NCBI GenBank assembly: GCA_023410715.1
Contig: JAEYPN010000030.1
Span: 48,806 to 112,805, forward strand
DNA length: 64,000 bases
Direction of reading: 5' to 3'
DNA from: Bacillota bacterium
GTDB lineage: Bacteria; Bacillota_I; Bacilli_A; Izemoplasmatales; UBA1188
Shown here piece after piece: positions 5,290 to 37,739 of the stretch. Position numbers and translations under genes: made by a program. The notes beneath the pieces were generated by a model. That model had not been told where the DNA came from and did no database searches. It was given only the letters and a program-made list of their open reading frames with translations. How positions within the stretch are numbered: position 1 is the stretch's first letter; every line of letters starts with the position of its first letter.

Positions 5290-5317
5290 TTTACATAAAA
5301 TATAATTATGATATAAT
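5290..5317 (+). promoter_or_regulatory. Sigma-A-type promoter of riboswitch operon 1
   Basis: TTTACA (5290-5295), 16 nt spacer, extended -10 TGaTATAAT (TATAAT 5312-5317). This places the TSS at about the 5' end of the aptamer. Confidence 0.6.
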
Positions 5318-5402: not shown

Positions 5403-5423
5403 TTTAGATAATAGTTTTTTTTA
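5394..5423 (+). terminator. Riboswitch expression-platform terminator, copy 1
   Basis: ACTATTATC-ttta-GATAATAGT hairpin followed by a T-run. Its 5' arm overlaps the 3' strand of the putative P1. Confidence 0.8.
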
Positions 5424-7665: not shown

Positions 7666-7682
7666 CTAGGAGGTGAATTTCC

Positions 7683-13600: not shown

Positions 13601-16600
13601 TGCATCTAAACAAGATGGTAGTACTTTAAACTCCATTTATGATTCAAAAACAAAAACCTGGTATTTGGATCAACCTGTTTCATATAATAATATCTTAGGT
13701 GATGAGGACAAAATAAATGGTAGTTGGGTTTTAGCAGATAAACAAGACGGTACAACTTTATACTCAATTTATGATTCAACTACAACCAAATGGTATTTAG
13801 ATCAACCGGTTTCATATAATGGTATTCTTGATGAAGAAGATAAGAGCTATCAATATGTTTTAGCTGATGTAAAAAATTATATTTATAGCAGTTCAAATGG
13901 TAAATGGTATTTAGATCAACCTGTTTCATATGATGGAGTTCTTGATGAAAAAGATCGTGTATTCCAATGGGTTATAGCTGATGCTCAGGATGGTTCAACT
14001 CCACACTCAATTTATGATTCAGCAACTGAAATCTATTATCTTGATCAGCCAACTACAAATGGTAAATTAGGTGATGAAGATCAAGTAAATGGTAGTTGGG
14101 TCTTAGCTGACTATCAAGATGGAACTTCATTAAATACAATTTATGATAATAAGACTAAAAAATACTATGTTGATCAAATTGTTTCATATAATGGGGTTTT
14201 AGGTGATGAAGATAAAAAAGTTGTAGTAACAAGTTCTACATCAAGTGAAATCTATTATGAGATTCCAAGTTCAATCGGAAAAGTTAATTATAAACCAGGA
14301 ACAAATCACTTAGGATCGATTAGACTGTCATTTAAGGTATATAATTTTAGAGATAAAACAGATTTAAGTGATATAATAACCTTATATCGTTATGATTCAA
14401 GAACTGGACAAAAAGTATTAGTTCCTCTAATGAATGGAGATATTATTAATTACACATTAATTGGTGGAGTCGTAACAAATGATAATAAAAATTTTGATAA
14501 TTTAAATAAATCATGGAGTTATGGAACACTTGATTTTGAATTATCATTATCACAGGATTTACAAGGCGGACTTTATTATGTCTATGTGTCACTTGGGACA
14601 GATGAATCTACTGATTACTATATCGCGTTTACGAAGATGAAGTCACCTGAACCAATTGTCACTGAGCTTGAATATGATGGAAATTCAATAATTCCTGAAT
14701 ATGAAAATCTTGATGATGAAACAAATTCTAACCGTTTTATCACATCATATACTAGTTACATTGAATTTGGCAAACATTATTTAGAAGGTGTAACTGATAA
14801 ATCAATGTATTTTGATGATTTAAGAACAATTGTTGATGTGTATTACAATGAAATAACCGGTAATAATTTACCTGATTATTTAACAAAACTAAGAATATCG
14901 CAATATTCAACAATTGAAAGCATTACATTTTCACTTGATTCATCATCAACTGCTTCACATCATAGATATATAATCACTTATACAATCTTGGCTGAAGATG
15001 GACTTACTAGAGGAACATTTATTCATTATATTGAAGAAATGAATGTTGATGTAAAAATTAAAGAAACATTTATTAATGGTAATACTGTTGATGCTCAAAA
15101 TAAAGTCTCATTTGCAAGAGAAGAAGCCCCTTTAATACATGTTGAATATGGTTTAACAGATATTTATAATTGGCAATACTTTTCATGCACAAGTAGTAAT
15201 CAAACCTTAGAAGATTCAATGTATTATATCAATGTTGACGAGTCATTTGGTTTTGAGATTATATTTGTTGAAGAACTAGACCCAGGTGATTACACGTTTA
15301 CCTTAAAATATAGTGCTTTAAATGTGTTAATATATGAAGGAAATCCAAGTATTACTAGTGATGATATTTATGTATCATATAATATTGTCTTTGAAATTTT
15401 AGAGGTAACAAAAAAGAAAAATGAAAATAGTTATCTTGAAGCTGTTAAGTTTGTAACAGATGTTATTTTTACCGGGTTAAATACAATTATTGATAATAAT
15501 CTTATTACCCCTGCAACTTATCAAAATTATTTAGTTAATGAGCAAGCGCGAAAAATTGTTTCATTACCAAGCGGAATATATTATAATGAATACAAAGCAA
15601 ATAATAATCGCTTCTGGGTAATTGGGCAGGTTCAAAAGACTAATCTTGATAGTTATATGCCAACCTTTACATTACCAATTGGCGCATTAGTTTACCGCGT
15701 AGAAATTGGATATCTTGAATCAGCAAATCAAGATGGTACAACCGCGCATTCAATTTATGATAGTGTAACTGAAAAATATTATTTAGATCAACCATTACCT
15801 AATTTAGTTTTAGGTGATGAGGACAAAGTTAATGGCGCTTGGATAATTGCATCTTCTCAGGATGGCACAACACCTAATTCCATTTATGACTTTGATACAA
15901 ATAAATGGTATATTGATCAAGCTGTTTATGATGGAAAACTTGGTAAAGAAGATAGGATTAAAGAATATCTAAAGGGTAATGGAACTATTGACTCAGAAGA
16001 TTTAAGATTTGATTTTAATCCACTTGACGAAGATAACTTTAATTATGTGACATATCGTGTGTTTGCAGAAGCATATATAGAAGGTGATGAAACATATGGT
16101 AATATGTACACCGATTATATCGTTTCTGTACAAGATGTTTCATTTAATGTTAAATTTGATATTGTTGTTGAAAAAGATGATTCATTTAATGTTAATCTTA
16201 ATAGCGAGCAACTTGTCGTTCATATTTCATTTGTTAACTATGAATCTGGTTATGTAATTGATAAGAATGGCAACTCTGTTTATGTACCATATAAGGATGA
16301 TACCCACATTAGAACAGCAATGTCAATGTTTTCATATTTAACAAGTAAAGACAATAAACAAGTTTTTATCAATAATCAGTTTTCAACAACTCAAGCTGGT
16401 TATTATAGAATAGATATTGAATTACCAGATAATTTAACATATGAATTGAGTTTTGCTTCATCAACAATTGTTGTTGATGAGGATAATAAAGGATTTATGG
16501 TTCAAGCATCCGTGATTCCAAAAAAATACCTGCTTAAAATAATCATCAAAGCAAATGGAAATCAAAGCGTTGATTGGGGACAACATCAGGAGACAATGGA

Positions 16601-16616
16601 TAAATATCCATTATAA
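7683..16616 (+). CDS. Giant (2977 aa) secreted adhesin-like protein with a GLUG-motif beta-helix region and ten copies of the ~40-aa repeat
   Basis: AGGAGGTGA RBS and an N-terminal signal/TM segment. FTGTFDGQGFTITNL is followed by about 15 periodic G-G-(L/I)-(I/V)-G type turns (VGGLVGQGSG, IGGLIGLSD, VGGLIGTGT, VGGIIGKLT ...), which is typical of GLUG-domain adhesins. Repeat blocks lie at aa 1847-2179 and 2683-2760. No LPxTG or other obvious C-terminal anchor is visible. Confidence 0.8.
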   Translation: MTRKIKNVIKKTMVLVLSILTSFFITLQISETSNVKKVYGDGYSGDLYNPSYGSSFMNIDPSVANPSNYVSFSEFMEVTYGETQFVNGKIVITSPGIFTDEIITNEEQVVLDQYSQKKIVIGSADELYYFSYLCHMQYKNNNSNGNINIPRNYYMSLYYVLGDDIDYVDASRYMRLFIPVGDSVSKFTGTFDGQGFTITNLFLKPIESSDVYEESYGGLEYYSFFSETSSNAIIKDFGLINPTIIQTIAFNQMFYTSYVVGRNYGLVDHVYVIDDRGNSSGISAEGGFFISGLVSKNYGTFTNAYYSSRLISSTSVTEKTGSNPIIIDNFGSMSHVYFDRSILNEEFTVCSSNNACDVTNGYIIDATVSNFDPSTIVYNNTLIGLSTSQFQNETYFKSDNWFNNTSYGTSAQMRLHDTYPILKGFYYNSTYDAYEITDATDLVYMISIFSKASYYRNQKYILVNNLDMDQIGPKAYKGGETAFSGVLTSLPIKINETQYITNRGQNYNYPYYAIFNLKINVGSAFGNIYSYGLFAYLSGKIENIAIVNAEISPLDASANDFNYSIGIVAGKLLNGRISNVHVSGNITLKTKASTNAIGKISVGGLVGQGSGMIINSSASGIINGEVHEANNYMNSSSIGGLIGLSDNIIVTGSRSVINISGISFTSANAITQNITTYVGGLIGTGTTSDFNTSHNDGSITINENGFYNGNLYVGGIIGKLTQANAIISEITNRGKITVNFTNFGTKTYLMTTRISGVMSVQSALRNPEFYGVGNTGNIEIKNKNISSSEFTNTNASIDVKVAGVINANSTHIISKGLHNSGNITGDLAIISGVTGVISAENSTSTVYTDLSKSYNSGNLTLTTSNVITHHDIFVSGIAFGKYMVLDNLRNTGNISIKISHSSTLSLNASGSYKTFKVVGNFEEVSLNRNIANCYNEGKINLITENITDNSFKFNTYVSGICYKNDNRAIYSDASEESITANISKSGSLDNVLNTGEIYVNTYIYGMCVASGITSMNASLITNAFNIANIYVRNEGFAPSGDWGGSLFETAACGISYLLLNRYAQIKDSANAGSITAIEEVNTATNILASGIAGRNDVSETGATISNTSNNHFAKVMFAINYGQILAWNNAEASPTAPEQLTQGWFGLWSGGSNYEAKTKATGILASGVMSTVNVINYGNIYSPTLASGIFGYINVNLFTVSANQTYVANTINYGNIRRIIAKPSTTTSTGSFTAGNTTYYFTPSSSNLNNYFLGGAIGNIRTKENISGLSAFLEIFSTESFNINFSYLINFDQLIDMVGFNIKSASFSAVNALITTNSNDTSAEPFESLKPYAFSDAPATQTTNMGIFSSDFPLKNPPDTPEFKGIETNELIPEYISFIPYNKVNGKIRDIVFGTNVSEQNQNIYGIYALASTQGVVNGQYIPENFNWSGIDPEIGGEADSSWRGEEGNNLTIIFSGKMNQLSQSVSTAIFDLELVSTTDSTIKLKKPVIDLKNSTLTYYVSKNSKEYLTGWTSGELEQVILGKQKTKTEYVLASANNYNFGGVSNITNIRILHGTDIIKEDTTYYKNPVTVAETKIKNESNTLGRLILKNSGTNNYVPVGDYLLSGSSYVDIYDKYYAGTLDVEFISHTPYTISGFLQTHYFYQSKGSIIQKGLDQSIAKNFDILQPTSVTTWFSSSTYQLAFTSGTVVNKTNGPYSAKDSNFYVYAGARTDYAKTYVLVQYTYLDLSDPESEVIFVPNEKSAYKTNYNDGYKLAYGANLVQMDYNKETYSDWKDNLAYVPRYSGEFKSLTNGENLGKITVMAQDGETTSTYTIQIEYVEAQSIKDLDAVYVNNVALSPDWVLAGNQTGTTPNSIYDPVTKKWYIDQKNGYNGILGNEDKVNNEWVEIPDQKITNHWIFDSTTNKYYVDQPIYNGTLGNEDKVDGSFVLAVPQSSTTEHAIYDLQTGNYYLDQPVYNNILGVEDMVTNRWTNASKQDGSTLNSIYDSKTKTWYLDQPVSYNNILGDEDKINGSWVLADKQDGTTLYSIYDSTTTKWYLDQPVSYNGILDEEDKSYQYVLADVKNYIYSSSNGKWYLDQPVSYDGVLDEKDRVFQWVIADAQDGSTPHSIYDSATEIYYLDQPTTNGKLGDEDQVNGSWVLADYQDGTSLNTIYDNKTKKYYVDQIVSYNGVLGDEDKKVVVTSSTSSEIYYEIPSSIGKVNYKPGTNHLGSIRLSFKVYNFRDKTDLSDIITLYRYDSRTGQKVLVPLMNGDIINYTLIGGVVTNDNKNFDNLNKSWSYGTLDFELSLSQDLQGGLYYVYVSLGTDESTDYYIAFTKMKSPEPIVTELEYDGNSIIPEYENLDDETNSNRFITSYTSYIEFGKHYLEGVTDKSMYFDDLRTIVDVYYNEITGNNLPDYLTKLRISQYSTIESITFSLDSSSTASHHRYIITYTILAEDGLTRGTFIHYIEEMNVDVKIKETFINGNTVDAQNKVSFAREEAPLIHVEYGLTDIYNWQYFSCTSSNQTLEDSMYYINVDESFGFEIIFVEELDPGDYTFTLKYSALNVLIYEGNPSITSDDIYVSYNIVFEILEVTKKKNENSYLEAVKFVTDVIFTGLNTIIDNNLITPATYQNYLVNEQARKIVSLPSGIYYNEYKANNNRFWVIGQVQKTNLDSYMPTFTLPIGALVYRVEIGYLESANQDGTTAHSIYDSVTEKYYLDQPLPNLVLGDEDKVNGAWIIASSQDGTTPNSIYDFDTNKWYIDQAVYDGKLGKEDRIKEYLKGNGTIDSEDLRFDFNPLDEDNFNYVTYRVFAEAYIEGDETYGNMYTDYIVSVQDVSFNVKFDIVVEKDDSFNVNLNSEQLVVHISFVNYESGYVIDKNGNSVYVPYKDDTHIRTAMSMFSYLTSKDNKQVFINNQFSTTQAGYYRIDIELPDNLTYELSFASSTIVVDEDNKGFMVQASVIPKKYLLKIIIKANGNQSVDWGQHQETMDKYPL
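13221..14219 (+). repeat. Eight tandem copies of the ~40-aa WY(L/I/V)DQ...LG(D/N)EDK repeat inside the giant adhesin
   Basis: An example unit is QDGTTLYSIYDSTTTKWYLDQPVSYNGILDEEDK. The family is the same as at 5951-6658. Confidence 0.85.
15729..15962 (+). repeat. Two further copies of the ~40-aa repeat near the C-terminal part of the giant adhesin
   Basis: QDGTTAHSIYDSVTEKYYLDQPLPNLVLGDEDKVNGAWIIASS followed by QDGTTPNSIYDFDTNKWYIDQAVYDGKLGKEDRI. Confidence 0.8.
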
Positions 16617-16643: not shown

Positions 16644-17285
16644 ATGAAGGGTTTAAAAAAACTTTTTAAAAGTAAGAAAGGTATCTTTGCTATATCACTA
16701 ATGTTACTTGCAGTAGTGTTAGTGAGTGCTGGCGGATTATGGGCTTGGTTTACGCAAGAAGGTACTCAGAGTACTTTTACGTTTACTGCTGGTCAAGTTA
16801 AATATGAACTAGGCAATATTCCAACAACTGATGGAAACTTTAAACTTCCTGGTGATCCAGTTATGGTTTATGCTTTTAGTCTAACAAACAAATCAAATAT
16901 TGATACGAATGTTAGAATAGAAGCAACATATAAGATTACACCAGCTATCGGATCTACAGCTCCTGAATTAACAGGTATAATCGGAATAGGGAACGTCCTG
17001 ATTACTAGAATAACTGATGGTTGGTTTATAAAGGATGGATATTATTACCTAGGAACATCTGGTTCTGAAACTACTTTAACTGCTGTATCTGATATAGTAA
17101 ATGGCACGATTGTTGTTGAAAACTTTGTCACAACAATGGTTATTAATGGTGATGTAATTGGTAATGACTATATGGGTTCTACCCTCACGATTACATTTAA
17201 GTTTCAAGCCAAACAAGCAAATAATTTAACCTGGGAAGATTGTGCAACAAAAAATATTGATTTTACAACAGGTTTAGCAAAGTAA
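16644..17285 (+). CDS. TasA/camelysin-like fibre-subunit candidate (SipW-type signal peptide)
   Basis: 213 aa with a GGAGA RBS. The N-terminus ...LLAVVLVSAGGLWAWFTQEGTQSTFTFTAGQVKYEL is close to the TasA/CalY leader pattern. The body is Thr/Gly/Val-rich and looks beta-rich. A SipW-type peptidase gene starts 4 nt downstream. Confidence 0.65.
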   Translation: MKGLKKLFKSKKGIFAISLMLLAVVLVSAGGLWAWFTQEGTQSTFTFTAGQVKYELGNIPTTDGNFKLPGDPVMVYAFSLTNKSNIDTNVRIEATYKITPAIGSTAPELTGIIGIGNVLITRITDGWFIKDGYYYLGTSGSETTLTAVSDIVNGTIVVENFVTTMVINGDVIGNDYMGSTLTITFKFQAKQANNLTWEDCATKNIDFTTGLAK

Positions 17286-17289: not shown

Positions 17290-17787
17290 ATGATAAAAAA
17301 AATAGGTAAGATTATAACTAACGTTTTGATTATTGCAATTCTCTTTTTTTCGTTATTTACAATTATAATGGGATTAATTGGCTTTAAATGGGATGTTGTA
17401 TTATCTGGCTCTATGGAACCAGATATTCATGTTGGAAGCCTAAATTACCGGAAATATGTGTCATTTGAATCACTTAATATTGATGATGACGTTGTCTATA
17501 AATCTAAATCTAGTGGTGATTTAATCACCCATAGAATCATTGATATTGATTACGAAAAAAAGATAGTAGTTACTCAGGGTATTAATGGTAAGGATAGCGG
17601 GGCAGCAAAAGAAGAAGTTGATTATACAAGAATTGTCGGCAAGTCATATTTTTCGATTCCTTTAATTGGATACGTTGCATTTTATTTTAAAAAATATTTT
17701 GTGGCTATAATTCTATTTGTAATTGCAGCCTTATTAATATATCAAGCTATTAAATTATTTAAAACACCAACAAAAGAAGAAAACTAA
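17290..17787 (+). CDS. SipW-type (ER/archaeal-type, S26B) signal peptidase I, paralogue 1
   Basis: 165 aa with an N-terminal TM. It has the canonical VLSGSMEP catalytic Ser box, an ITHRI His box and a C-terminal TM. The usual KGDNN box reads TQGINGKD, so the Asp is absent. Confidence 0.75.
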   Translation: MIKKIGKIITNVLIIAILFFSLFTIIMGLIGFKWDVVLSGSMEPDIHVGSLNYRKYVSFESLNIDDDVVYKSKSSGDLITHRIIDIDYEKKIVVTQGINGKDSGAAKEEVDYTRIVGKSYFSIPLIGYVAFYFKKYFVAIILFVIAALLIYQAIKLFKTPTKEEN

Positions 17788-17788: not shown

Positions 17789-20167
17789 ATGAAAGGAGTC
17801 TATGTTTTTATGAGAACAAAAAATAATAAACCACTTTTTGCATTATTTTTAGCTTTTGCATTTGGGCTCCTTTTAATTATTGGTTTCTTTTTAATTTTAG
17901 TTATGAATACTAATGATAAAAAATTAGGAGAAATGCTAAGAATTAATACTGATCAAAAATATACAATATTTTTTGATGATATTAATTTTAAAAGAGAAAA
18001 ATACATTGAAAATTATTTAACACTAAGTGATGGAATATTATCTAGAACAGAAGAACTATCAAATAAAAAATATTTAATAATTTCTGGTAAGCTAGCTTAT
18101 TTATATGATGATGGGATTGATGTTTATTATTACTTTGATAATCAAGTATTTGAAGTATTTGATGACGAAGAATTAAATAATATTTACTTGATTAATGATC
18201 AAGGGGAAATCTTATGTTCATATAAGGAAGTTAACTTTAGTTATTATTTTATCGAACTAAGAAAATATATAAGTGAATCTCGTACTAAGGAAATATTTAA
18301 CGCTATTTTAAAAACTAGACATGGTAGTGATGAAATCAGCGTAAATGGTAAAAAGGGCTTCATTATCTATAAATATGTTGATGAATTTCAAGCTAATATG
18401 ATTTTTGAATATCACAATATTAGAAGTGCAAAGTATGATGTACAAATTGTAACTTATACACTTGTATTTATTGTAATTATTTCTATCGTTTTACTTTGTA
18501 TTTACTTTATTTTGTATAAGATGATTATTAAGAAAACTAATGATCTTGATATTGCAAGACGAAATTCACAAAATCCTTATACATATATCATTAAGACTAA
18601 TAAAAGTGGCGTTTTTACTTTTCAAAACCGGAACTTTAGAACTGACTTTCATGGTAAATATAAAAAGTTATCAGACTTTGAATTAGATATTAATACAGAT
18701 ATTGATAGTATCGTTAAAAATCAAATACCATTTACAGTTAAATTAATAGATAACAGAAGTAGAGAACATTACCTACATTTTATTGTAGTTGATAATGTAA
18801 AAGAACTTGTTTTTATTGGTGAGAATTTATCGAAGATGCATAATAAAACTGGTATAGAGTCTTATCATAAAGTTGATGAATTAACTCAAGTTCCAAACAA
18901 AGAAGCATTTATTTCAGATATTGATGAACATATTATTGATAATAAAAAGGTTGAAAAAGCCGGTGTATTATTATTAAATATCAAGAAATTTAATAACATC
19001 AATAATTTATTTGGTCGTTATTTTGGCGACAAGATAATGATGGAATTTGTTAAGATGCTTGTTGAAATAATTGATGATAAAGGAAAAATATATCGTATAG
19101 AGGGCGATAATTACGCGATATTAATTAATCCTTTAGAAAATATTGATGAATGTAAGAAAATGGCCAGTTTAATAATTAAACGTTTTGAAAAACCAATAAA
19201 TTTCTTAAATAATGAAGTAGTTTTAGGTTGTAAAATTGGTGGTTATCTTATTATCAAAGAAAAGTACACCCCAGCCATTACAGCTTTAGAAATTATTGAT
19301 AAAGTATCCTTAGCGTTAAAAGAAGCTAAAAATGATAAGAACAATGATTTTATAATGTATGATAGTAACATTGAAACGATAAATCAAAAAGAGATTCAAA
19401 TGTTAGATGATATGGGCAAAGCCTTAAAAAAAGATGAGTTTGTGATGTTCTATCAAGCACAATATAATACAAAAATAAAAAAAATAGTAGGTTTTGAAGC
19501 TTTAATTAGATGGAATAACCCACTTTACAGAAACGTATCACCACAAAAATACATAAAATTAGCAGAGAAAACTGGAATGATAGTACCTCTAGGTATGCAT
19601 ATTGTTAAAGAGGTTTTAAGGTATGCTAAAAAAATAGTCAATGATATTGTCCATGTATCATTGAACGTTTCGCCAATTCAACTAATTCAGTCAGGATTTG
19701 TTAATGATTTTTTAGCGGAATATAATAAATATAGTTTTAAACCTGGCCAAATTGCTATTGAAATTACTGAATCATTTTTGATGGAAACATTACAAGAAGT
19801 GATTCAAAAATTAAGAATTATAAAAGAAAATGGTATAAAAATTTATATGGATGACTTTGGAACAGGTTATTCATCACTTCTATACCTAAAAGATTTACCA
19901 ATTGATGTAGTTAAACTTGATCAGCAATTTATTTCATTAATTGAAGTCGATGAGTCTTCAAAGCTTATTGTCAAAAAGATAATTGAAGTTGCAAAAGGAT
20001 TAAATTTGGATGTAGTAGCTGAAGGGGTTGAGTCTGAATCCCAAAGCAAGATTTTACTTGAAAATGGCTGTGATATTATCCAGGGATATTTAATCTCTCG
20101 GCCAATACCAGAGCTTGATGCTACAGCTTTGCTTAACAACATCAATAAACAAAAAGGAGTTGATTAA
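17789..20167 (+). CDS. Membrane sensor protein with degenerate GGDEF and intact EAL domains (predicted c-di-GMP phosphodiesterase)
   Basis: 792 aa with two TM segments bracketing a ~190-aa extracytoplasmic region. The GGDEF site reads R-I-E-G-D-N-Y. The EAL domain has all canonical boxes: GFEALIRW, LNVSP, IEITES, MDDFGTGYSS, VKLD, AEGVES and IQGY. The start could instead be ATG 17810. Confidence 0.85.
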   Translation: MKGVYVFMRTKNNKPLFALFLAFAFGLLLIIGFFLILVMNTNDKKLGEMLRINTDQKYTIFFDDINFKREKYIENYLTLSDGILSRTEELSNKKYLIISGKLAYLYDDGIDVYYYFDNQVFEVFDDEELNNIYLINDQGEILCSYKEVNFSYYFIELRKYISESRTKEIFNAILKTRHGSDEISVNGKKGFIIYKYVDEFQANMIFEYHNIRSAKYDVQIVTYTLVFIVIISIVLLCIYFILYKMIIKKTNDLDIARRNSQNPYTYIIKTNKSGVFTFQNRNFRTDFHGKYKKLSDFELDINTDIDSIVKNQIPFTVKLIDNRSREHYLHFIVVDNVKELVFIGENLSKMHNKTGIESYHKVDELTQVPNKEAFISDIDEHIIDNKKVEKAGVLLLNIKKFNNINNLFGRYFGDKIMMEFVKMLVEIIDDKGKIYRIEGDNYAILINPLENIDECKKMASLIIKRFEKPINFLNNEVVLGCKIGGYLIIKEKYTPAITALEIIDKVSLALKEAKNDKNNDFIMYDSNIETINQKEIQMLDDMGKALKKDEFVMFYQAQYNTKIKKIVGFEALIRWNNPLYRNVSPQKYIKLAEKTGMIVPLGMHIVKEVLRYAKKIVNDIVHVSLNVSPIQLIQSGFVNDFLAEYNKYSFKPGQIAIEITESFLMETLQEVIQKLRIIKENGIKIYMDDFGTGYSSLLYLKDLPIDVVKLDQQFISLIEVDESSKLIVKKIIEVAKGLNLDVVAEGVESESQSKILLENGCDIIQGYLISRPIPELDATALLNNINKQKGVD

Positions 20168-20172
20168 ACAAC

Positions 20173-21627
20173 ATGTTAATTTTAGAATCTATTATGCTTG
20201 ATATTTTAGTTACCATTTTCATGTTACTTATAATATGTGTTTTAATACTCTTCCTTTACAGAAGTATAAAAAAAGAAAACTTCAGATACTATAATGAAAA
20301 TATTAGAGAGATTGATGGGATTAAGTCAAAGAGAGATTTTGTGAGTGATGTTTCTGATACGATTGCCAGATTTGGTAATATTGCTAGATTCTCTTTAATG
20401 AAGGTATCAACAGAAGGACTTGAAAATATTAATGAAAAATATGGTATAAAGGATGGAGACAGAACTATTCAGGAAATATGTACTAGAATGCTTAAAATTG
20501 TTCCTGAAAAATCAGTTATAGGTCGAACAGATAATACAGAATTTACAATCTGGATAAAAAATATTTTAAGTTTAGACCAAATTACTGTGTTAGCTGAAGA
20601 TATAATTGAATCAATTGAGAGACCAATTGCCGTTCAAAATGGCGAAGTAAACGTTGAATGTAAGATTGGAATTGTAAAATTTCCCGATCATGGGTTTAAT
20701 TATAAAACATTAATCACTAACCTAAATACTGCCTGTTATGTGGCAATTAAAGACACTGGAGCAAAGTTTGCAATCTTTAGTGAAAAAATTAAAGATGAAG
20801 AAGCTGAAAATGCTAAGTATTTCTTAGAATTAAAAGATGCTATTAAAAGGGAACAATTTACTTTATACTATCAGCCAATTGTTTCCTTAACTAAAAAGAA
20901 AATTGTAGCGGTAGAGTCCTTGCTTAGATGGAATCATCCAACATTAGGTGTTTTAGGACCCCATGAATTTATTGATGTTTTAGAAAAATCAGGCGATATA
21001 AACTGGGTTGGCTTTTGGGGGATTCAGGAATTAATAAAAAAACAACAGGAATTTAAAAAAACAATACCAAACTTTGATGTGGTATTTACTTTTAATCTTT
21101 CGCCAAAACAGCTACAATCACCTACGATTGTCGATGAGTTTAGAAAAATACTTAGAAAGTTTAATCAAAATCCGGAAACAATCTGTTTAGAAATAGTTGA
21201 ATTTGCGATGTTCCAAAAATATGGAATTATTTTAGAAAATGTTGAAAAATTAAAAGAGCTTGGCTTTAAGATTGCTATTGATGACCTAGGATTAGAATAT
21301 GCTACGTTATCAAAGCTTGATAAGATGCCAATTGATTATATCAAACTTGATAAATCATTTATTTCTCAAGCTAAAGAGAATTTTATGAATGTCAAGATTA
21401 CTGAAATGTTGATTGATATTACTAAAGATAAACAAATTAAGATTGTTGCTGAAGCAATTGAAAACGAAGAAATGATTAGCTACGTTCGTAATTTAGGCAT
21501 TAATTTAGTTCAGGGATATTGCTTCTCAAGCCCAGTAAATTCCCAAGATATTAAACAGCTAATTCTTAAAAATAATTATAAAGAGATAATAGATAGCACG
21601 GAAAAAATTAAAGCGTCGACAGAATAA
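20173..21627 (+). CDS. Membrane protein with degenerate GGDEF and divergent EAL domains (phosphodiesterase or c-di-GMP sensor)
   Basis: 484 aa with an N-terminal TM. The GGDEF site reads R-T-D-N-T-E-F. The EAL boxes are partly altered: VESLLRW, FNLSP, LEIVEF, IDDLGLEYAT (for DDFGTGYSS), IKLD, AEAIEN and VQGY. Confidence 0.75.
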   Translation: MLILESIMLDILVTIFMLLIICVLILFLYRSIKKENFRYYNENIREIDGIKSKRDFVSDVSDTIARFGNIARFSLMKVSTEGLENINEKYGIKDGDRTIQEICTRMLKIVPEKSVIGRTDNTEFTIWIKNILSLDQITVLAEDIIESIERPIAVQNGEVNVECKIGIVKFPDHGFNYKTLITNLNTACYVAIKDTGAKFAIFSEKIKDEEAENAKYFLELKDAIKREQFTLYYQPIVSLTKKKIVAVESLLRWNHPTLGVLGPHEFIDVLEKSGDINWVGFWGIQELIKKQQEFKKTIPNFDVVFTFNLSPKQLQSPTIVDEFRKILRKFNQNPETICLEIVEFAMFQKYGIILENVEKLKELGFKIAIDDLGLEYATLSKLDKMPIDYIKLDKSFISQAKENFMNVKITEMLIDITKDKQIKIVAEAIENEEMISYVRNLGINLVQGYCFSSPVNSQDIKQLILKNNYKEIIDSTEKIKASTE

Positions 21628-21666: not shown

Positions 21667-21695
21667 TTGACAATTTTCTATATATATAATAGAAT
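21667..21695 (+). promoter_or_regulatory. Sigma-A-type promoter of riboswitch operon 2
   Basis: TTGACA (21667-21672), 17 nt spacer, TAGAAT (21690-21695). A TATAAT at 21685-21690 would leave only a 12-nt spacer. Confidence 0.55.
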
Positions 21696-21701: not shown

Positions 21702-21781
21702 GTAATATAAATGGCAAACTTGTTGAAAAACAAGGACGCAAAGCTATAGGGCCTATACATAGGCAGCCAGTTGCTATTATC
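21702..21781 (+). promoter_or_regulatory. c-di-GMP-I (GEMM-I) riboswitch aptamer, copy 2
   Basis: GGCAAAC-(CTTGTT GAAA AACAAG)-GACGCAAAGCTATAGGGCC...AGGCAGCCAGTTGCTATTATC. It shares long identical stretches with copy 1, such as GGACGCAAAGCTATAGGGCCT. Confidence 0.85.
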
Positions 21782-21803
21782 TCTTTCGGATAATAGTTTT
21801 TTA
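21774..21803 (+). terminator. Riboswitch expression-platform terminator, copy 2
   Basis: CTATTATC-tctttcg-GATAATAG hairpin followed by TTTTTT. The stem sequence matches copy 1. Confidence 0.8.
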
Positions 21804-21847
21804 TTTTAAAAAGCTATTATTAACTGAATGAAAGGGGGGTAATGGCC

Positions 21848-22525
21848 ATGAGATTATCTGAAATTAAAGCAGCTAAAAGAATTTTAACAATAAAAAAATT
21901 TACAAGAATTGGCTTAAGTATAACTGCAGCTATATCAGTAATCTTTTCATTTATTGCTCTTTACGCTAAAAATGCTGGTAATTATGCTATAAAACTAGAA
22001 GATTCTCGTTCTAGATCAATGTCATTATCCGAAACTTATGATTTTGCAAAACCGGTTACAAGTCTTACAGCCAAAGGTATTAACAGTATGCTTGATATTG
22101 ATGGTAATTATCTTAACATGGAAACCATATCAAGGGTTGATGGTTCAAATAACCTTGGCAATTTCTATATTGCTTATACATTTTATTTAAAGAATGTAGG
22201 AGAAGAAACTTACGATTATGAGATGAAATTCTTTATTGAAGATGTAACCAAAGGAGTCGATAGTGCTTTAAGACTTCGTATTTATAAAGATGGAGTTGAT
22301 ACCATTTATGCTAAACTAGCAAAAGATGGTAATCCAGAACCTGGTACTATCGCATTTAAGTCCGATGTAGTCGCTGCTGATGAAGTTTATAAAAACTTTA
22401 AACCAGGCGAAATACATAAATATACGATTGTCATATATTTACATGGTCCAGATCCAGAATGTGTTAATGACATTATGTCTGGTATCATTAAAGCCAGTAT
22501 GCAATTTAGTGTTATAGGTCTATAA
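21848..22525 (+). CDS. Membrane-anchored or secreted beta-rich protein, first gene of riboswitch operon 2
   Basis: The ORF track starts at 21842. I prefer ATG 21848, which lies 8 nt after the GGGGGG RBS. A basic N-terminus and one hydrophobic segment (...ISVIFSFIALYAKNAGNYAIKLED) precede a beta-rich body. No family recognised. Confidence 0.5.
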   Translation: MRLSEIKAAKRILTIKKFTRIGLSITAAISVIFSFIALYAKNAGNYAIKLEDSRSRSMSLSETYDFAKPVTSLTAKGINSMLDIDGNYLNMETISRVDGSNNLGNFYIAYTFYLKNVGEETYDYEMKFFIEDVTKGVDSALRLRIYKDGVDTIYAKLAKDGNPEPGTIAFKSDVVAADEVYKNFKPGEIHKYTIVIYLHGPDPECVNDIMSGIIKASMQFSVIGL

Positions 22526-22556
22526 GAAAATTATAAATAAATTAAGGAGAAGAGAA

Positions 22557-23885
22557 ATGAAAGGATTTAACAAGAAATTATTAGTTGCATCATTTACATT
22601 ATTATTTGCAGTTGTTGCAACAGTTGCATCAACATTTGCATGGTTCACAATGAATACAACATCAAGTGTATCTCAATTTGACTTGCAAGTGACAGCCGGC
22701 GAAGGTATGATGATATCTTTAAACGGTCAAGAAGGTACTTATAAGAGTACAATTACAAGAGAAGAAATTCTAGCTTTCTTATTAAAAGGAACTGATAACT
22801 CTGGATGGTTAGTTGATACTAACAGTAAAAGAACAAGACTATTAGACCCAATTACATCAGTTAATGGAACGACTTTCTTAAACTTAAAAGGATTAGTAAC
22901 TGGTACTAATAATGTTTTTGATAACTTAACATTCTACTTTAGAAGCCAAAATAAACTTGATGTTAGACTTCAAACAGCATCTGTTACAGGTCCAAACGCT
23001 GTACTAGATCTTGAAGTTAAAAAAACTGACAAAGTTGGTATTTGGGCAGATAATAATACTTTTAAATCTGATATTTTTGATTATTCAGAAAAAGAAGATC
23101 CTGAACTAGAAAACTTAAGATTAACTACTACTTTAGCTAACGCTATTAGATATTCATTTGAACAAAAATCAGGTTCAGATGCAAACACTACTAAAGTTAA
23201 TGTATTTGATCTTAACTCACAAAAAGGTTTTGGTGGAAGAGACGTTTTAGTTTATAAGTCAGGAACAGATAAACAAGATGTTTATGATTATTTAGTTGAA
23301 AACAACTTAGCTTATGCATACTTAAATAAAGTTTCTCCAGAAGATTTATATGAAAATGGTACAACTATTAACTTTGGTGCAATTAAAAATACTGATCAAA
23401 TTTTCTTACCTACTGAAGATGTAACATACAATTTATATAATGAAGTTAAGTATGGAGAAATCTATCAAGAACAATTAGATAGAATAACTAATGCTCAAAA
23501 TGCGATTAACTTACTAAACAAAGAAGGAGAACTTACTCCAGCTGAACAAGGAACATTAGCTGCAATTATTGATTATTTTAAAAATGATGGTATTACAAGC
23601 GATAGTACAGTTTCTGCTTATGAAGCTATTATAAATACTGCCAATATAGCAATTAATGGCCTTTCTGATAATGATAAGAAAGTATTAACAACACATTATT
23701 CTTATCCAACACTTCTTACTTTAAGTGATACAGCAGATGGTAATGGATGGTATACAGGTTCAATTCAATTAAGAGTTTGGTGCGAAGGTTGGGACGCTGA
23801 CTGCTTTGACGTATTATTTGAAGAAAAAGTATATATTAATTTTACATTCGTAGGTACTAAAATAGAAAGTGCACCTGCAATCTAA
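22557..23885 (+). CDS. Large TasA-like secreted protein (442 aa) with a SipW-type signal peptide, candidate major subunit
   Basis: Strong AAGGAG RBS. The N-terminus MKGFNKKLLVASFTLLFAVVATVASTFAWFTMNTTSSVSQFDLQVTAG fits the TasA-like pattern. A strong terminator follows the gene. Confidence 0.6.
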   Translation: MKGFNKKLLVASFTLLFAVVATVASTFAWFTMNTTSSVSQFDLQVTAGEGMMISLNGQEGTYKSTITREEILAFLLKGTDNSGWLVDTNSKRTRLLDPITSVNGTTFLNLKGLVTGTNNVFDNLTFYFRSQNKLDVRLQTASVTGPNAVLDLEVKKTDKVGIWADNNTFKSDIFDYSEKEDPELENLRLTTTLANAIRYSFEQKSGSDANTTKVNVFDLNSQKGFGGRDVLVYKSGTDKQDVYDYLVENNLAYAYLNKVSPEDLYENGTTINFGAIKNTDQIFLPTEDVTYNLYNEVKYGEIYQEQLDRITNAQNAINLLNKEGELTPAEQGTLAAIIDYFKNDGITSDSTVSAYEAIINTANIAINGLSDNDKKVLTTHYSYPTLLTLSDTADGNGWYTGSIQLRVWCEGWDADCFDVLFEEKVYINFTFVGTKIESAPAI

Positions 23886-23922
23886 CATTTTAATATAATT
23901 TTTAATAACTAAATATTTATAT

Positions 23923-23953
23923 AAGACCACAAAGTTTTTTGTGGTCTTATTTT
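23923..23953 (+). terminator. Rho-independent terminator inside the locus, after the 442-aa subunit gene
   Basis: AAGACCACAAA-gtttt-TTTGTGGTCTT perfect hairpin followed by a T-rich tail. Confidence 0.8.
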
Positions 23954-23960
23954 AGAAATA

Positions 23961-23969
23961 TGGTATAAT
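23961..23969 (+). promoter_or_regulatory. Extended -10 promoter element (TGgTATAAT)
   Basis: TG at 23961-62 and TATAAT at 23964-69, about 35-45 nt upstream of the next ORF. No good -35 element is seen. Confidence 0.45.
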
Positions 23970-24003
23970 TTATACATATATATCAAAATTTAGCAAAGGT
24001 TGT

Positions 24004-24729
24004 GTGAATAAAATGGAGAATGTTACTAATAAACCAAAAGGCAAGAAAATATTTAGCATAATTTTTAATGTAATCTTTTATATTATTATTGTGTTAATAA
24101 TTGTTTTTGCATTTCTAAGTGTCGTTCAGAAAAAAAATAACGGAATATCCTTTGTTTTTGGTTATTCACCAGTTCGGGTTTTAACAAAATCCATGGTTGG
24201 AGAAAATGAAGATTCATTTAATAAAAATGATGTAATAATTGTAAAGAAGTTTACTGATTCTGATGAAATTATAGTTGGTAAGACAATTATTACTTTTTAT
24301 GCTAATATAAATGGGATTACTGCTCCGAATTCACATAGAGTCATAGATATGCTTGTCATTGATGGGAAAATATGCTATCAGACAAAAGGTGATAATAATC
24401 CAGAACCTGACCGTCTTCTTGTGAACGAAGAAGATATAATTGGTATCTATGTAAATAAGATTGAAAAAGTTGGTTATCCAATCGAAAAGTTACAAACAAA
24501 AACAGGATTTTTACTTTCAGTTGTCTTACCTTCTGTTTTGTTTTTAATTTATCAAATGTTTGTTTTTGGTAAAATTGTTATAGATTCTAAGGTAGAAAAA
24601 GAAAAAGCTATACTTGAAGAACAAAAAATTCAAAATGAAATTAAAGAGAAAGAAGCTTTAGAATTAAAGAAGAGATTAGAGGAATTAGAAAAAAAATTAG
24701 CTGCAAGTGACTATGCAAAAGATAAGTAA
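24004..24729 (+). CDS. SipW-type signal peptidase I, paralogue 2, with a C-terminal TM and charged coiled-coil tail
   Basis: The Ser box reads VLTKSMVG. The His box is NSHRVID and the QTKGDNNPEPD box is intact. A C-terminal TM is followed by a Glu/Lys-rich tail. The start is ambiguous between GTG 24004 and ATG 24013. Confidence 0.7.
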   Translation: MNKMENVTNKPKGKKIFSIIFNVIFYIIIVLIIVFAFLSVVQKKNNGISFVFGYSPVRVLTKSMVGENEDSFNKNDVIIVKKFTDSDEIIVGKTIITFYANINGITAPNSHRVIDMLVIDGKICYQTKGDNNPEPDRLLVNEEDIIGIYVNKIEKVGYPIEKLQTKTGFLLSVVLPSVLFLIYQMFVFGKIVIDSKVEKEKAILEEQKIQNEIKEKEALELKKRLEELEKKLAASDYAKDK

Positions 24730-24740
24730 GAGGTGGGTTT

Positions 24741-26285
24741 ATGAGTGCTTTTTCAAAATACTACATTGATTTTTTACTCGAATTTATCAGAGATGTAAAA
24801 AACTTTTTTGTTGATTTGTTTTTAGTCTTCTGGCAAATAATCTTAAATATTGTTGATTACTTTGATATGATGATTGATCAATCAAGTGATTTTGGCATTG
24901 TTGGTTGGTTATTTGCTGTAATTATTACACTCATTAATTTAGCTTTAGCTGTATTTATAGGAATCAGATTATGGCAATTTTTACGTCGATATTTTATCTT
25001 TAGAAAAAGGCAATTAGAAAAAGAAGAGTTGCTTGAAGAAGTGGCAATGCTTAATGAGCAAGTTGCTAATTTAGTTGATGAAAAGAATAATATTATGAAT
25101 TTAAAACTTTCTGCTTTAAGTGCTAAAGGTTTTGATATTAGTAAAATTAACCAAGGTTCTGGAACTGCTGAAAATAATGCAAGCGAAAAATCTGCTAATT
25201 CTCGGTTTATAAAGTTAACTATAGTCGATGAAATTTATCGTAATAAGAATACCAAAATTACAATGGGTCAAGATGACGCTATTGGTTTAACTGAACTTGT
25301 TGAACGATTTGTTAACTTCTCTGCAAGTCAACTTAAACTTTACTATACGAAAAAAACAATCTCAGTATTTTTTGCAGGCTTAGCTACATCGAAGATTATG
25401 ATCCTTGAAGGTATATCTGGTACAGGTAAAACCTCGCTACCTTATGCCATGGGTAAATTTTTTAAAACGCAAACACAAATTATTTCAGTTCAGCCATCGT
25501 GGCGTGACCGTGCTGAAATTTTAGGATATCTAAATGAGTTTACTAAGAGATTTGTTGAAACTGACTTCTTAAAATGTGTTTATGAAGTTACTTATCGTGA
25601 AGATATTAACTTTATAATTTTAGATGAGATGAACTTAGCACGTATTGAGTATTATTTCGCTGACTTTTTATCAATGATGGAAATGCCAGATATTTCTGAA
25701 TGGAAAATAGACTTAGTTCCAAGTTCACTTGCATCAGACCCTGTTAATTTAATTGAAGGAAAGTTACTCGTTCCTCAAAATGTCTGGTTTATTGGAACAG
25801 CAAATAAGGATGACTCAACATTCACAATTACCGATAAGGTTTATGACCGTGCGACAACACTAGAATTTAGATCTAAGGGTGAATATTTTGATGCGCCATA
25901 TACGGAAAATCTTAATATGAGTTATGATTACTTAAATGAACTATTCCAACAAGCGTTAGATAAGATTCATGTTTCACCACTTGTGACAGATAATTTAAAT
26001 AAACTTGATCAATTTATTCAACAAAAATTTAAACTGGCATTTGGTAATCGTATTTTAAAACAAATTAATACCTTTATTCCAGTTTACGTTGCTTGCGGTG
26101 GAAATGAAGTAGATGGGTTAGACTATTTATTTGCTCATAAAATACTTAGAAAGTTTGAAAGCTTAAACATTGGTTTTATGACTGATGAGGTTAATCAATT
26201 AATTTTATTAATTCAAAAATTATTTGGAAAAAATAAATTTACTGAATCAATTCAGTATTTACAATCATTAATGAAAATGATGTAA
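24741..26285 (+). CDS. Membrane-anchored McrB-like AAA+ (AAA_5 family) NTPase
   Basis: AGAGGTGG RBS. The N-terminal ~80 aa are hydrophobic (TM around GWLFAVIITLINLALAVFIGI) and are followed by a coiled-coil segment. Walker A is EGISGTGKTS and Walker B is FIILDEMNLARIEYYFADFLSMME. WFIGTANKDDSTF corresponds to the McrB GTMNTADRS box. Confidence 0.7.
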   Translation: MSAFSKYYIDFLLEFIRDVKNFFVDLFLVFWQIILNIVDYFDMMIDQSSDFGIVGWLFAVIITLINLALAVFIGIRLWQFLRRYFIFRKRQLEKEELLEEVAMLNEQVANLVDEKNNIMNLKLSALSAKGFDISKINQGSGTAENNASEKSANSRFIKLTIVDEIYRNKNTKITMGQDDAIGLTELVERFVNFSASQLKLYYTKKTISVFFAGLATSKIMILEGISGTGKTSLPYAMGKFFKTQTQIISVQPSWRDRAEILGYLNEFTKRFVETDFLKCVYEVTYREDINFIILDEMNLARIEYYFADFLSMMEMPDISEWKIDLVPSSLASDPVNLIEGKLLVPQNVWFIGTANKDDSTFTITDKVYDRATTLEFRSKGEYFDAPYTENLNMSYDYLNELFQQALDKIHVSPLVTDNLNKLDQFIQQKFKLAFGNRILKQINTFIPVYVACGGNEVDGLDYLFAHKILRKFESLNIGFMTDEVNQLILLIQKLFGKNKFTESIQYLQSLMKMM

Positions 26286-26301
26286 GATTGCAGGTGAAAA
26301 A

Positions 26302-28032: not shown

Positions 28033-28052
28033 TAAAAACAGGAGGTGGTAAC

Positions 28053-28703
28053 GTGAAAAATCTAGGTATTTATCGAAGACTTATATTAGGCGTTATCACT
28101 ATATTTTTTGCTATTTTAGCGATTATTGGCGGAACATATGCTTGGTACACAGAAAGTGTAAGAGCGAATGTTGAGGACTTAGTTTTACAGGTAAGTGGAA
28201 GAGAAGCCATAGTTAAAATATATTTAGGTCAAGATAGTAATCGTGATGGAATACTTGATTTAGGCGTAGATAATTTGCCAATTTATACAGAAATAGTAAA
28301 TGCAATATATTTTAATTATGATGAGAATGGTGGAAATTTAGAGCCTGGGAATGTCTTTACCTTTAGAATTGTTGTTAAAAATGCTGATGATTTAATGAAT
28401 ATTAGAATAACTGATATTATTGAATTTAATTCTAATTATAATAATTCCAACGAAATAAAAAAAGCAATGCTTCTTAATTATATTAATAATTATCAAGAAG
28501 ATTTATTTGACGTAAGTAATTTATCACTTGAAGATTTTATGAATATAAATAATGGATTTTTTGTTAAAGATTTAGATACTAATCCAATGATGGAATATAT
28601 ATTTGATTTTACTTTGACTTTTGATGGAGATGTAAGCGGAAATGAAGGTCAAGCAGGATACTTATCGATAAAAAAAATTCGGATAAATTTTAGTAAGGAT
28701 TAA
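28053..28703 (+). CDS. TasA/camelysin-like secreted protein (SipW-type signal peptide)
   Basis: GTG start behind an AGGAGGTGG RBS. The N-terminus ...FAILAIIGGTYAWYTESVRANVEDLVLQVSG fits the pattern. A SipW-type peptidase gene starts 2 nt downstream. Confidence 0.6.
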   Translation: MKNLGIYRRLILGVITIFFAILAIIGGTYAWYTESVRANVEDLVLQVSGREAIVKIYLGQDSNRDGILDLGVDNLPIYTEIVNAIYFNYDENGGNLEPGNVFTFRIVVKNADDLMNIRITDIIEFNSNYNNSNEIKKAMLLNYINNYQEDLFDVSNLSLEDFMNINNGFFVKDLDTNPMMEYIFDFTLTFDGDVSGNEGQAGYLSIKKIRINFSKD

Positions 28704-28705
28704 AT

Positions 28706-29266
28706 ATGAAAAAGACAATCTATATCATCACAACAGCACTTACATATTTGTTTATAGTTTTGGCTGGATTAGTTATTATATCTTTTTCAGTAAGTATAAT
28801 TAAAAAAGAACGTCCAAATTTATTTGGTGTTTACTTATTTCACGTTGAAACGCCTTCAATGCAAGGAACTATTGATAAAGGCGATGTTATTATTGTAATT
28901 AGAAAGAAAAAATACCATAAAGATGAAATTATTACTTTTGAATCTATTAATTACTTTCCTGAATTAAAAGGTTATCCTATAACTCATAGAATAGTAGATG
29001 AGGTTGGAAAAGATAAATTATATCAGACCAAAGGTGATAATAATGAGGCTAATGATGATTTTAGAGTTAAAAAAGAGGATATCATTGGTAAATATGTATA
29101 TAAAACATATTTAATTACTGCTTTATATAAACTGTTTGCTTATAAAGATGTCTCATATATTTATGGACCAATTATTATATGTTTTATAATTATTGGTATT
29201 ATATCTATCAAGGAAATAATTAAGTATCAAGTAAAAAAGAAATTAGATGAAACAAAGGCCAAATAA
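28706..29266 (+). CDS. SipW-type signal peptidase I, paralogue 3
   Basis: The Ser box reads VETPSMQG. The His box is PITHRIVD and the QTKGDNNEAND box is intact. N- and C-terminal TM segments are present. Confidence 0.7.
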   Translation: MKKTIYIITTALTYLFIVLAGLVIISFSVSIIKKERPNLFGVYLFHVETPSMQGTIDKGDVIIVIRKKKYHKDEIITFESINYFPELKGYPITHRIVDEVGKDKLYQTKGDNNEANDDFRVKKEDIIGKYVYKTYLITALYKLFAYKDVSYIYGPIIICFIIIGIISIKEIIKYQVKKKLDETKAK

Positions 29267-37732: not shown

Positions 37733-37739
37733 ACTCATA

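Follow-up and report, generated by a model that had tools for sequence, protein, structure and literature searches.

The window analyzed here is a 64,000-nucleotide (nt) stretch of a Bacillota bacterium genome (GenBank assembly GCA_023410715.1, contig JAEYPN010000030.1, positions 48,806 to 112,805 of the forward strand) with a G+C content of 28%. On its + strand lie two adjacent, intact open reading frames (ORFs), A6 (17789..20167, 792 amino acids (aa)) and A7 (20173..21627, 484 aa), each of which encodes a membrane-anchored protein in which an EAL domain follows a degenerate GGDEF domain. [quoted passage not shown] We asked what this arrangement may mean for the control of c-di-GMP by the pair, and for the control of the pair by c-di-GMP. 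The ORFs examined between 5.5 and 29.3 kb all lie on the + strand, and the features needed for the argument, in positions of the window, are as follows.

5290..5317, + strand: promoter-like site of operon A (TTTACA-16-TATAAT with a TG extension, 11/12 matches), which aligns with the leader B promoter
5325..5400, + strand: aptamer A, c-di-GMP-I (Rfam clan CL00126, 59.5 bits, E 1.6e-11)
5394..5423, + strand: leader A terminator, with stem ACUAUUAUC (5394-5402) / GAUAAUAGU (5407-5415), loop UUUA and U8
5501..7665, + strand: A1 (484 aa) and A2 (237 aa), both secreted, each with a hydrophobic stretch at the N-terminus and then [ST][FY]AW[FL]
7683..16616, + strand: A3, giant surface protein of 2977 aa, with the GLUG motif as its only Pfam match
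16644..17285, + strand: A4, TasA/camelysin-like secreted protein (Pfam Peptidase_M73, 30.9 bits; cut-off 22.5)
17290..17787, + strand: A5, signal peptidase I of the SipW (archaeal) type (TIGR02228, 72.5 bits; cut-off 51.85)
17789..20167, + strand: A6 (PDE1), with a first transmembrane (TM) segment (TM1, 17831-17905), an ectodomain (17906-18442), TM2 (18443-18523), a PAS-like linker, a degenerate GGDEF domain (EGDNY, 18869-19345) and a canonical EAL domain (19418-20104)
20173..21627, + strand: A7 (PDE2), with a single TM segment, a degenerate GGDEF domain (DNTEF, 20320-20748) and an EAL domain (20827-21534) in which loop 6 is degenerate (DDLGLEYAT)
21667..21695, + strand: promoter-like site of operon B (TTGACA-17-TAGAAT, 11/12 matches)
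21704..21779, + strand: aptamer B, c-di-GMP-I, a paralogue of aptamer A (62.2 bits, E 2.8e-12)
21773..21803, + strand: leader B terminator, GCUAUUAUCU / GGAUAAUAGU plus a U-run, of ON design

The first-pass annotation of this DNA, made from its letters alone, had placed A6 and A7 inside a riboswitch-controlled operon, and the arrangement of the gene string agrees with that placement. Successive genes of operon A are separated by gaps of -4, 17, 27, 4, 1 and 5 nt, the gap between A5 (sipW) and A6 being 1 nt, or 22 nt if A6 starts at position 17810. The standard terminator scan, which demands three G-C pairs, overlooked the AT-rich leader terminators, and we therefore wrote a relaxed scan for hairpins followed by a U-run and applied it to the + strand from 5200 to 29500. 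Stable terminator-like hairpins were found in this range only at 5394-5415, 21773-21797, 23925-23946 and 29254-29273, with none on the + strand between 5416 and 21772; in other words, the hairpin of leader B is the first that any transcript running out of A7 would encounter. Likewise, the 1.2 kb upstream of A6 contained no promoter above chance level: the best + strand sites there match 9-10 of the 12 consensus positions, and the number of such sites is that expected by chance, while the promoters of both leaders match 11 positions of 12. Considering that the gaps are small, and that neither a terminator-like hairpin nor an above-chance promoter intervenes, the simplest reading is that A6 and A7 would be co-transcribed with A1-A5.

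The two leaders are 79% identical, including their promoters, and show a compensatory change in one helix. The nucleotides that contact the ligand are present (GGC in AAAGGCAAAC, A in CGCAAAGC, and C in GUUAC / GUUGC), at positions that we take to be equivalent to G20, A47 and C92 of Vc2. Rfam gives both aptamers the label c-di-GMP-I-GGC, with 62.2 and 59.5 bits against the RF03167 gathering threshold of 59. This label is misleading, as the scores lie just above gathering and are only slightly better on the variant model. A reading of both aptamers as GGC variants (RF03167) was rejected, because the window carries GACGCAAAG where the variant consensus is GACGCGAAG, with an A and not a G at the defining position. 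Since the variant-defining G is absent, the aptamer sequence is canonical and implies no altered ligand. Near-identical aptamers of the relatives described below score 54-65 bits on RF01051 (threshold 35), which is the standard family.

The direction of the switch can be judged from the way in which aptamer and terminator share their sequence. In aptamer A, the P1 helix pairs UAAUA (5325-5329) with UAUUA (5396-5400), and the nucleotide that pairs with the ligand is C5395. The 5' arm of the leader A terminator covers the last 7 nt of this aptamer, so that C5395 and the P1 strand at 5396-5400 belong to both structures. Folding of the aptamer and formation of the terminator are thus mutually exclusive, which gives an ON design in which a separate anti-terminator is unneeded; indeed, no separate anti-terminator element was seen in the leaders. 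The terminator 5' arm was found inside the aptamer in the window leaders and in the nine riboswitches of relatives that were folded. By their layout, both leaders would therefore be ON switches, which for the leader of operon A the first-pass annotation had made a condition of its loop. Downstream of the leader B terminator, at 21813-21821, there is a second copy of GCUAUUAU, which pairs with the 3' arm and the U-run of the terminator in the minimum-free-energy structure of the fragment, and which might alter the structure of the read-through transcript near the ribosome-binding site of B1.

To judge the enzymes themselves, EAL and GGDEF residues were aligned to those of MucR and MorA, two solved and active phosphodiesterases (PDEs), and of five intact GGDEF-EAL proteins. 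MorA and MucR are also the best matches in the PDB (4RNH and 5M3C, E 1e-62 to 1e-57). In A6, for which Pfam reports GGDEF at E 4.9e-22 and EAL at E 1.9e-63, the motif strings R-I-EGDNY (436-442), FEALIRW, SLNVSP, IEITES, DDFGTGYSS, VKLDQQF, AEGVES and IQGY are all present. Every catalytic and metal-binding residue of the EAL domain is kept (E570, R574, N626, E658, E661, D688, D689, K709, D711, E745, E748 and Q765). These signature residues align with the same residues in MucR and MorA and are invariant in the alignment of orthologues, and loop 6 (aa 688-696) has the canonical form DDFGTGYSS in A6 and in all of its orthologues, five sequences altogether. The view that this first EAL domain retains each of its catalytic boxes thus stands, and on the strength of its signature residues and loop 6 we predict that A6 is a competent c-di-GMP phosphodiesterase. 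Its start codon probably lies at the in-frame ATG at 17810, which is preceded by an AAAGGAG ribosome-binding site and at which the protein begins in a public protein collection (785 aa).

The N-terminal part of A6 is a candidate sensor region. Topology was derived from hydropathy and from the positive-inside pattern of charges. A6 has two hydrophobic segments (approximately aa 15-39 and 219-245) around a loop of ~180 aa, close to the ~190-aa extracytoplasmic region proposed earlier, and the charge pattern places the GGDEF and EAL domains in the cytoplasm. All five A6 orthologues share this two-TM sensor layout, together with a conserved cytoplasmic linker that opens with a PAS-like YIIKxNKxG motif. 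An exhaustive phmmer search with the ectodomain against 1.84 billion representative proteins returned zero homologues; the three weak matches obtained with the sensor region fell in TM2 and the linker, and all were in other GGDEF-EAL proteins. A profile built from the five ectodomains found nothing among the PDB sequences, and single-sequence structure prediction of the N-terminal 352 aa gave a pLDDT (predicted local distance difference test score) of 42, with confidence for the TM helices only. As the sensor domain has neither detectable homologues nor a fold assignment, no ligand can be proposed for it. By eye the ectodomain looks Cache-like, which we do not put forward as a claim.

Both proteins are distant from those already described, the GGDEF-EAL proteins of the window being 27-33% identical to any named relative. 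A word-indexed search of 5.8 billion proteins with A6 and SipW returned the self match and relatives of at most 38% identity, and nothing closer. A scan of species-representative genomes with A6 found only unrelated GGDEF-EAL proteins.

A7 matches the Pfam GGDEF and EAL models at E 5.2e-18 and E 1.7e-60, respectively, and its motif strings are R-T-DNTEF (118-124), VESLLRW, FNLSP, LEIVEF, IDDLGLEYAT, IKLDKSF, AEAIEN and VQGY. The first-pass annotation had described this second EAL domain as altered at several boxes, which would fit a weak enzyme or a binding-only sensor. The damage was overstated, as all catalytic and metal-binding residues are kept here too (E248, R252, N308, E340, E343, D370, D371, K391, E427, E430 and Q447); catalytic positions are hence invariant in both proteins when aligned to the characterized EAL domains of MucR and MorA, and the changes to ESL and EAIE affect non-catalytic positions only. 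The part of the description that holds concerns loop 6, where D-L-G-L-E-Y-A-T replaces the canonical D-F-G-T-G-Y-S-S, the sole substantive change. The loop 6 consensus DFG(T/A)GYSS is regarded as needed for dimerization, cofactor binding and activity (PMC12943098, PMC2994820), and EAL domains with deviating signatures have been put in a class of uncertain activity (PMC12900916). Because its loop 6 deviates, we classed A7 as a protein of uncertain activity or a partner. The degenerate loop, D[DG][LF]GL[DE]Y, is common to all five A7 orthologues, and the four metagenomic copies go further: all of them have DG in place of DD, and two have ExxQ in place of ExxE. A weak or binding-only A7 is therefore reasonable for the family, and unproven for the copy in the window. 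A7 has one N-terminal hydrophobic segment (approximately aa 8-29) and no extracytoplasmic domain. Considering that the degeneracy of loop 6 is conserved and that the junctions between the A6 and A7 genes are tight or overlapping, A7 would most likely be a regulatory or c-di-GMP-binding partner of A6, and not a second strong enzyme.

The first-pass annotation had held neither GGDEF domain likely to synthesize c-di-GMP, and both sites indeed read as dead. The GG[DE]EF motif is gone from both active sites, which read EGDNY in A6 and DNTEF in A7, and so is the upstream Mg-binding Asp, the DxD of the 'LDxDxFKxxND' box having become NIK in A6 and VST in A7. The alignment with the five intact GGDEF-EAL proteins revealed no RxxD site in either domain, and the GGDEF site is degenerate in all orthologues of A6 and A7. 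The Asn and Asp that contact guanine are nevertheless kept, so that GTP sensing by the GGDEF domain is possible, by analogy with Caulobacter PdeA/CC3396, whose degenerate GGDEF domain reportedly senses GTP.

For comparison between loci, metagenome contigs were scanned for a 20-nt aptamer core, which yielded 120 loci, and these were then analyzed with offline phmmer, the only route by which the orthologues came to light. Four contigs (L078, L021, L084 and L116; 28-32% G+C) encode orthologues of both A6 (819-868 aa) and A7 (467-522 aa), with the two genes adjacent or, in three relatives, overlapping by 1-4 nt. The surroundings of the pair in the five loci compare as follows.

Window locus: pair preceded by A1-A5; riboswitch heading operon A; one riboswitch before B1
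L078: MetRS and a YitT-family gene upstream; own riboswitch at 4920-4994, 45 nt before the pair; two riboswitches before B1
L021: upstream layout as in L078, judged by ORF sizes; own riboswitch at 4074-4147, 22 nt before the pair; two riboswitches before B1
L084: MGMT gene upstream; two riboswitches before B1
L116: an opposite-strand histidine kinase / response regulator gene upstream, preceded by a 36%-identical A3 homologue; three riboswitches before B1

In L078 and L021, the leader in front of the pair contains the terminator GCCAGUUAC-loop-GUAACUGGC-UUUUAUUAUUU, whose 5' arm coincides with the aptamer's 3' end, the layout of an ON switch. Predicted ON-switch control of the pair thus occurs in three of the five loci by two architectures. 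Conservation is highest in what follows the pair. Every one of the four relatives has, behind it, a near-consensus promoter, then c-di-GMP-I riboswitches in tandem (two or three of them) and then B1 and B2 homologues, so that adjacency of the pair to a unit of promoter, riboswitch, B1 and B2 is seen in 5/5 loci. In L116, the opposite-strand gene, a hybrid histidine kinase / response regulator, and the A3-like giant gene occupy 5550-7049 (+) and 7086-14099 (-), with the kinase gene lying between the giant gene and the pair.

The wider set of aptamer loci places this pattern in context. Among the 64 aptamer-pattern loci with at least 2 kb of downstream sequence, none had an EAL or GGDEF gene downstream of the aptamer. 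Loci with the same aptamer subtype (core GGACGCAAAGCTATAGGGCC; L007-L126) had an A4-like ORF within ~80-100 nt in ~15 cases and B1/B2-like genes in ~7. A link between riboswitch and fibre genes is therefore common, and the link between riboswitch and PDE is special to the pair. The recurrent association of c-di-GMP riboswitches with SipW-type fibre genes is apparently undescribed. The locus of the nearest SipW homologue, L006, encodes a giant protein with SpaA repeats and no PDE. Tandem riboswitches before B1/B2 were located in L084 (2312-2510), L116 (743-1091), L062 (3874-4191), L071 (2906-3226), L078 (9182-9356) and L021 (8358-8527); most of the tandem units that were folded own a terminator, and the first unit of L078 showed none.

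The genes that precede the pair in operon A had been called adhesin genes. Secreted and surface genes are indeed co-located with the pair, but 'adhesin' was a guess, and the Pfam and TIGR matches of A4 and A5 point to a SipW and TasA/camelysin fibre set, so that operon A would more aptly be called a secreted-fibre operon of the SipW/TasA type that also encodes a giant surface protein. The Peptidase_M73 match of A4 covers aa 17-101 only, and A2 has a weak, sub-threshold match (E 0.012) to TIGR04090, a model of BsaA-family SipW-dependent matrix proteins. A hydrophobic N-terminus followed by [ST][FY]AW[FLY], a motif recognized by eye, is shared by A1 and A2 (5501-7665), A4 (16644-17285), B2 (22557-23885) and B6 (28053-28703), and probably represents the signal cognate to SipW; the NCBIfam signal models stay below cut-off (TIGR04088 gives 17.0 against 19 for B6). 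Much of A1 (5501-6955) consists of ~40-aa repeats (…WYIDQ…G.LGEEDKVNGEWV…), which recur in the C-terminal third of A3 with 35-54% identity.

Riboswitch B begins 77 nt after A7, a neighbour that the first-pass annotation had missed, and it precedes the second gene string.

21842..29266, + strand: operon B (B1-B7), with terminators at 23925-23946 (after B2) and 29254-29273 (end)

Homologues of B1 and B2 accompany the PDE pair in the relatives as well. The strong terminator after B2 suggests a short, abundant B1-B2 transcript and a read-through product. B3 and B7 are SipW-like and related to each other, B7 also having a weak, sub-threshold match to Peptidase_S24. B2 and B6 carry SipW-type signals. 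The membrane protein B4 contains GISGTGKTS, which by eye is Walker-A-like, and B5 is rich in Glu and Lys and by eye looks like a coiled coil. Elsewhere in the window there are two ordinary housekeeping RNAs (37737-37940 and 44416-44491), a T-box leader ahead of the valyl-tRNA synthetase gene and a leader of ribosomal protein L21, and a giant ORF of 2676 aa (48777-56807) and an ORF of 1057 aa (59950-63123) have zero Pfam matches.

Taken together, these observations lead us to propose that A6 and A7 are conserved, membrane-anchored c-di-GMP phosphodiesterase proteins whose expression would be switched on by c-di-GMP itself, giving delayed negative feedback. We assign this reading a probability of about 0.6. 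While c-di-GMP is scarce, transcription begun at the 5290-5317 promoter would halt at the leader terminator (5394-5423). Binding of c-di-GMP to the aptamer (5325-5400) would fix C5395 and the P1 strand (5396-5400), thereby blocking the terminator, and the polymerase would then read through ~16 kb, in which the fibre and surface genes A1-A5 come first and A6 and A7 last. Once made, A6, gated by its ectodomain and possibly also by GTP and A7, would hydrolyze c-di-GMP, and the resulting drop in the messenger would return leaders A and B to termination. As the PDE genes are the most distal in a 16-kb transcript, the loop would be delayed, which would favour a pulse of fibre-gene expression. Negative feedback, which had been suggested earlier together with pulse-like expression, is as a prediction well supported in silico. 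The relatives add to this support, as the orthologous pair in L078 and L021 sits directly behind its own ON-type riboswitch, the genes farther upstream being housekeeping genes of no relation to it.

A more elaborate form of this proposal, which we hold only tentatively and consider doubtful, is that the pair acts as a locus-linked 'exit timer' of a SipW-fibre riboswitch regulon in Izemoplasmatales-like (Mycoplasmatota-related) bacteria. Here, A6 as an active EAL enzyme and A7 as its conserved pseudo-enzyme partner would form a membrane heteromer whose ectodomain reports the state of the fibre or surface, and their distal position, immediately ahead of a second ON switch, would make the pulse delayed and self-ending; the pair might also be a local c-di-GMP sink that sets the thresholds of the adjacent riboswitches.

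Several points weigh against the feedback reading. Promoter-like hexamers occur at chance frequency in this 28% GC genome (131 found versus 129.9 expected), so that an internal promoter is possible, and no riboswitch was found before the pair in two of the four relatives, L084 and L116, even at E<=1, so that riboswitch control of the pair is recurrent and not universal. Both would fit a pair that is transcribed from its own internal promoter, constitutive or otherwise regulated, with riboswitch A playing a minor part and no built-in loop, and AT-rich coding DNA is in general rich in weak promoter-like sites. The spacing after sipW and the chance-level sites of 9-10/12 in the 1.2 kb upstream of A6 nonetheless argue against such a promoter, as does the fact that all promoters mapped across the locus family are near-consensus (TTGACA-17-TATAAT) and lie in intergenic gaps, and we regard this explanation as improbable. 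In C. difficile, the class I riboswitches that proved functional switched expression OFF (PMC6200980), which would suggest an OFF leader here, in which high c-di-GMP shuts off its own PDE and creates positive feedback or bistability. Since the terminator arm at 5394-5402 takes up the C that pairs with the ligand and all of P1's 3' strand, a ligand-bound aptamer excludes the terminator, and the same layout recurs in the folded riboswitches of the locus family; an OFF switch is thus extremely improbable here. EAL activity can also be lost by single substitutions outside the signature residues (PMC12900916). As another alternative, A6, A7 or both could be LapD-type receptors, which bind c-di-GMP without hydrolyzing it and signal outward to SipW processing or to release of the giant protein. 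The order of TM segment, ectodomain, TM segment, linker, dead GGDEF and EAL beside a giant surface protein and a peptidase does resemble LapD/LapG/LapA (PMC3032553), and loop 6 is degenerate in the A7 family, most members of which lack the second Asp of DD. Yet the degenerate member, A7, is the one without an extracytoplasmic domain. For A6 a LapD-like receptor was rejected, as its catalytic residues and DDFGTGYSS are intact in all five orthologues and the NCBIfam LapD equivalog model (NF045673) gives 100.5 and 105.5 bits, far below its cut-off of 1020. We therefore consider a LapD-type role for the pair very improbable.

A further alternative concerns what the pair is for more than how it is expressed. 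A6 and A7 could be a cue-gated shut-off or threshold device for operon B and not a bulk c-di-GMP homeostat, with their position behind operon A being incidental; the ectodomain of A6 would sense something outside the cell, for instance the assembled fibre, contact with a surface or a nutrient, upon which A6 would lower c-di-GMP and the adjacent, riboswitch-controlled B1 and B2 would be turned off. This idea draws on the adjacency of the pair to promoter, riboswitch(es) and B1-B2 in all five loci whatever lies upstream, on the two-TM sensor architecture of A6 and all its orthologues, and on the two or three tandem ON riboswitches before B1 in the relatives, tandem arrays being a known device for sharp thresholds (PMC9481103). 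It meets a difficulty in L062 and L071, which have B1/B2 and triple riboswitches but no EAL gene in 2.9-3.9 kb upstream, and the orphan sensor domain offers no ligand from which the cue could be named. We judge such a device, the foremost of the alternatives, unlikely though conceivable, and note that it is compatible with, and not opposed to, the negative feedback that we favour.

The control of c-di-GMP turnover by a riboswitch is known in principle. Sudarsan et al. (2008), as relayed in later papers (PMC7266159, PMC3971182, PMC12564702), noted c-di-GMP-I (GEMM) RNAs upstream of genes for diguanylate cyclases and PDEs, and a review calls riboswitch control of c-di-GMP turnover genes rare (PMC6366702). 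Our literature searches turned up no such case that had been characterized by experiment, and in particular none in which an ON c-di-GMP riboswitch drives a phosphodiesterase. The earlier cases share with the window a class I aptamer and intrinsic terminator at the head of a unit with c-di-GMP turnover genes, so that the ligand would control its own metabolism. Compared with those cases, the PDE genes of the window come last and not first, as the two final cistrons of a structural operon of 16 kb; in two relatives they are the first genes; and the ON design would lead to negative feedback. What the window adds is that an active-looking EAL protein is paired, in a conserved manner, with a degenerate one, together with comparative support for riboswitch control.

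At the protein level, Caulobacter PdeA/CC3396 and P. aeruginosa MorA and MucR resemble A6 and A7 in that a dead GGDEF domain is followed by EAL, which is canonical in A6, but the N-terminal sensor region of A6, unlike theirs, is an orphan. A7 recalls the YkuI-type EAL class of 'uncertain activity' (PMC12943098, PMC2994820, PMC12900916), in which the catalytic set is kept and loop 6 is degenerate. It differs from that class in that the degenerate loop is conserved in five orthologues and that the gene always comes right after an active-looking EAL partner, an association that suggests a dedicated heteromeric role.

The fibre genes, in turn, have counterparts in the sipW-bsaABCRSD operon of C. 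perfringens and the tapA-sipW-tasA operon of Bacillus, where a SipW peptidase is encoded with its secreted fibre or matrix substrates (PMC7395162), as would probably be the case here. The C. perfringens operon carries its own regulators (the BsaRS two-component system), just as the window operon carries regulator genes, and a partial terminator after the early genes of sipW operons parallels the one after B2 (PMC7395162). In contrast to these operons, the window uses c-di-GMP riboswitches and a PDE pair and not a two-component system or SinR, and its proteins are very distant, with Peptidase_M73 and TIGR02228 the only matches above threshold. Tandem c-di-GMP-I riboswitches have also been catalogued, with 347 doublets and 12 triplets (PMC9481103); the relatives have two or three before B1/B2, whereas the window has single ones, one per adjacent operon, with the pair between them.

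The affiliation of the organism gives these findings a further setting. Its ValS (38437-41004) is 63-65% identical to its best matches, the named ones among which belong to Izemoplasmatales metagenome-assembled genomes, unclassified Mycoplasmatota isolates and Hujiaoplasma, which gives the source an approximate placement. To our knowledge, c-di-GMP signalling has been little explored in Izemoplasmatales and Mycoplasmatota. None of our findings overturns current understanding. The window, together with L078 and L021, would provide a small, experimentally accessible case in which an RNA exerts negative feedback on a second messenger. The locus also draws attention to the conserved association of an active-looking EAL protein with a degenerate one, to the recurrent link of this aptamer subtype with SipW/TasA-like fibre genes, and to signalling by c-di-GMP in a lineage that has Izemoplasmatales and other Mycoplasmatota as its nearest named relatives, and whose c-di-GMP riboswitches and EAL proteins may merit a survey.

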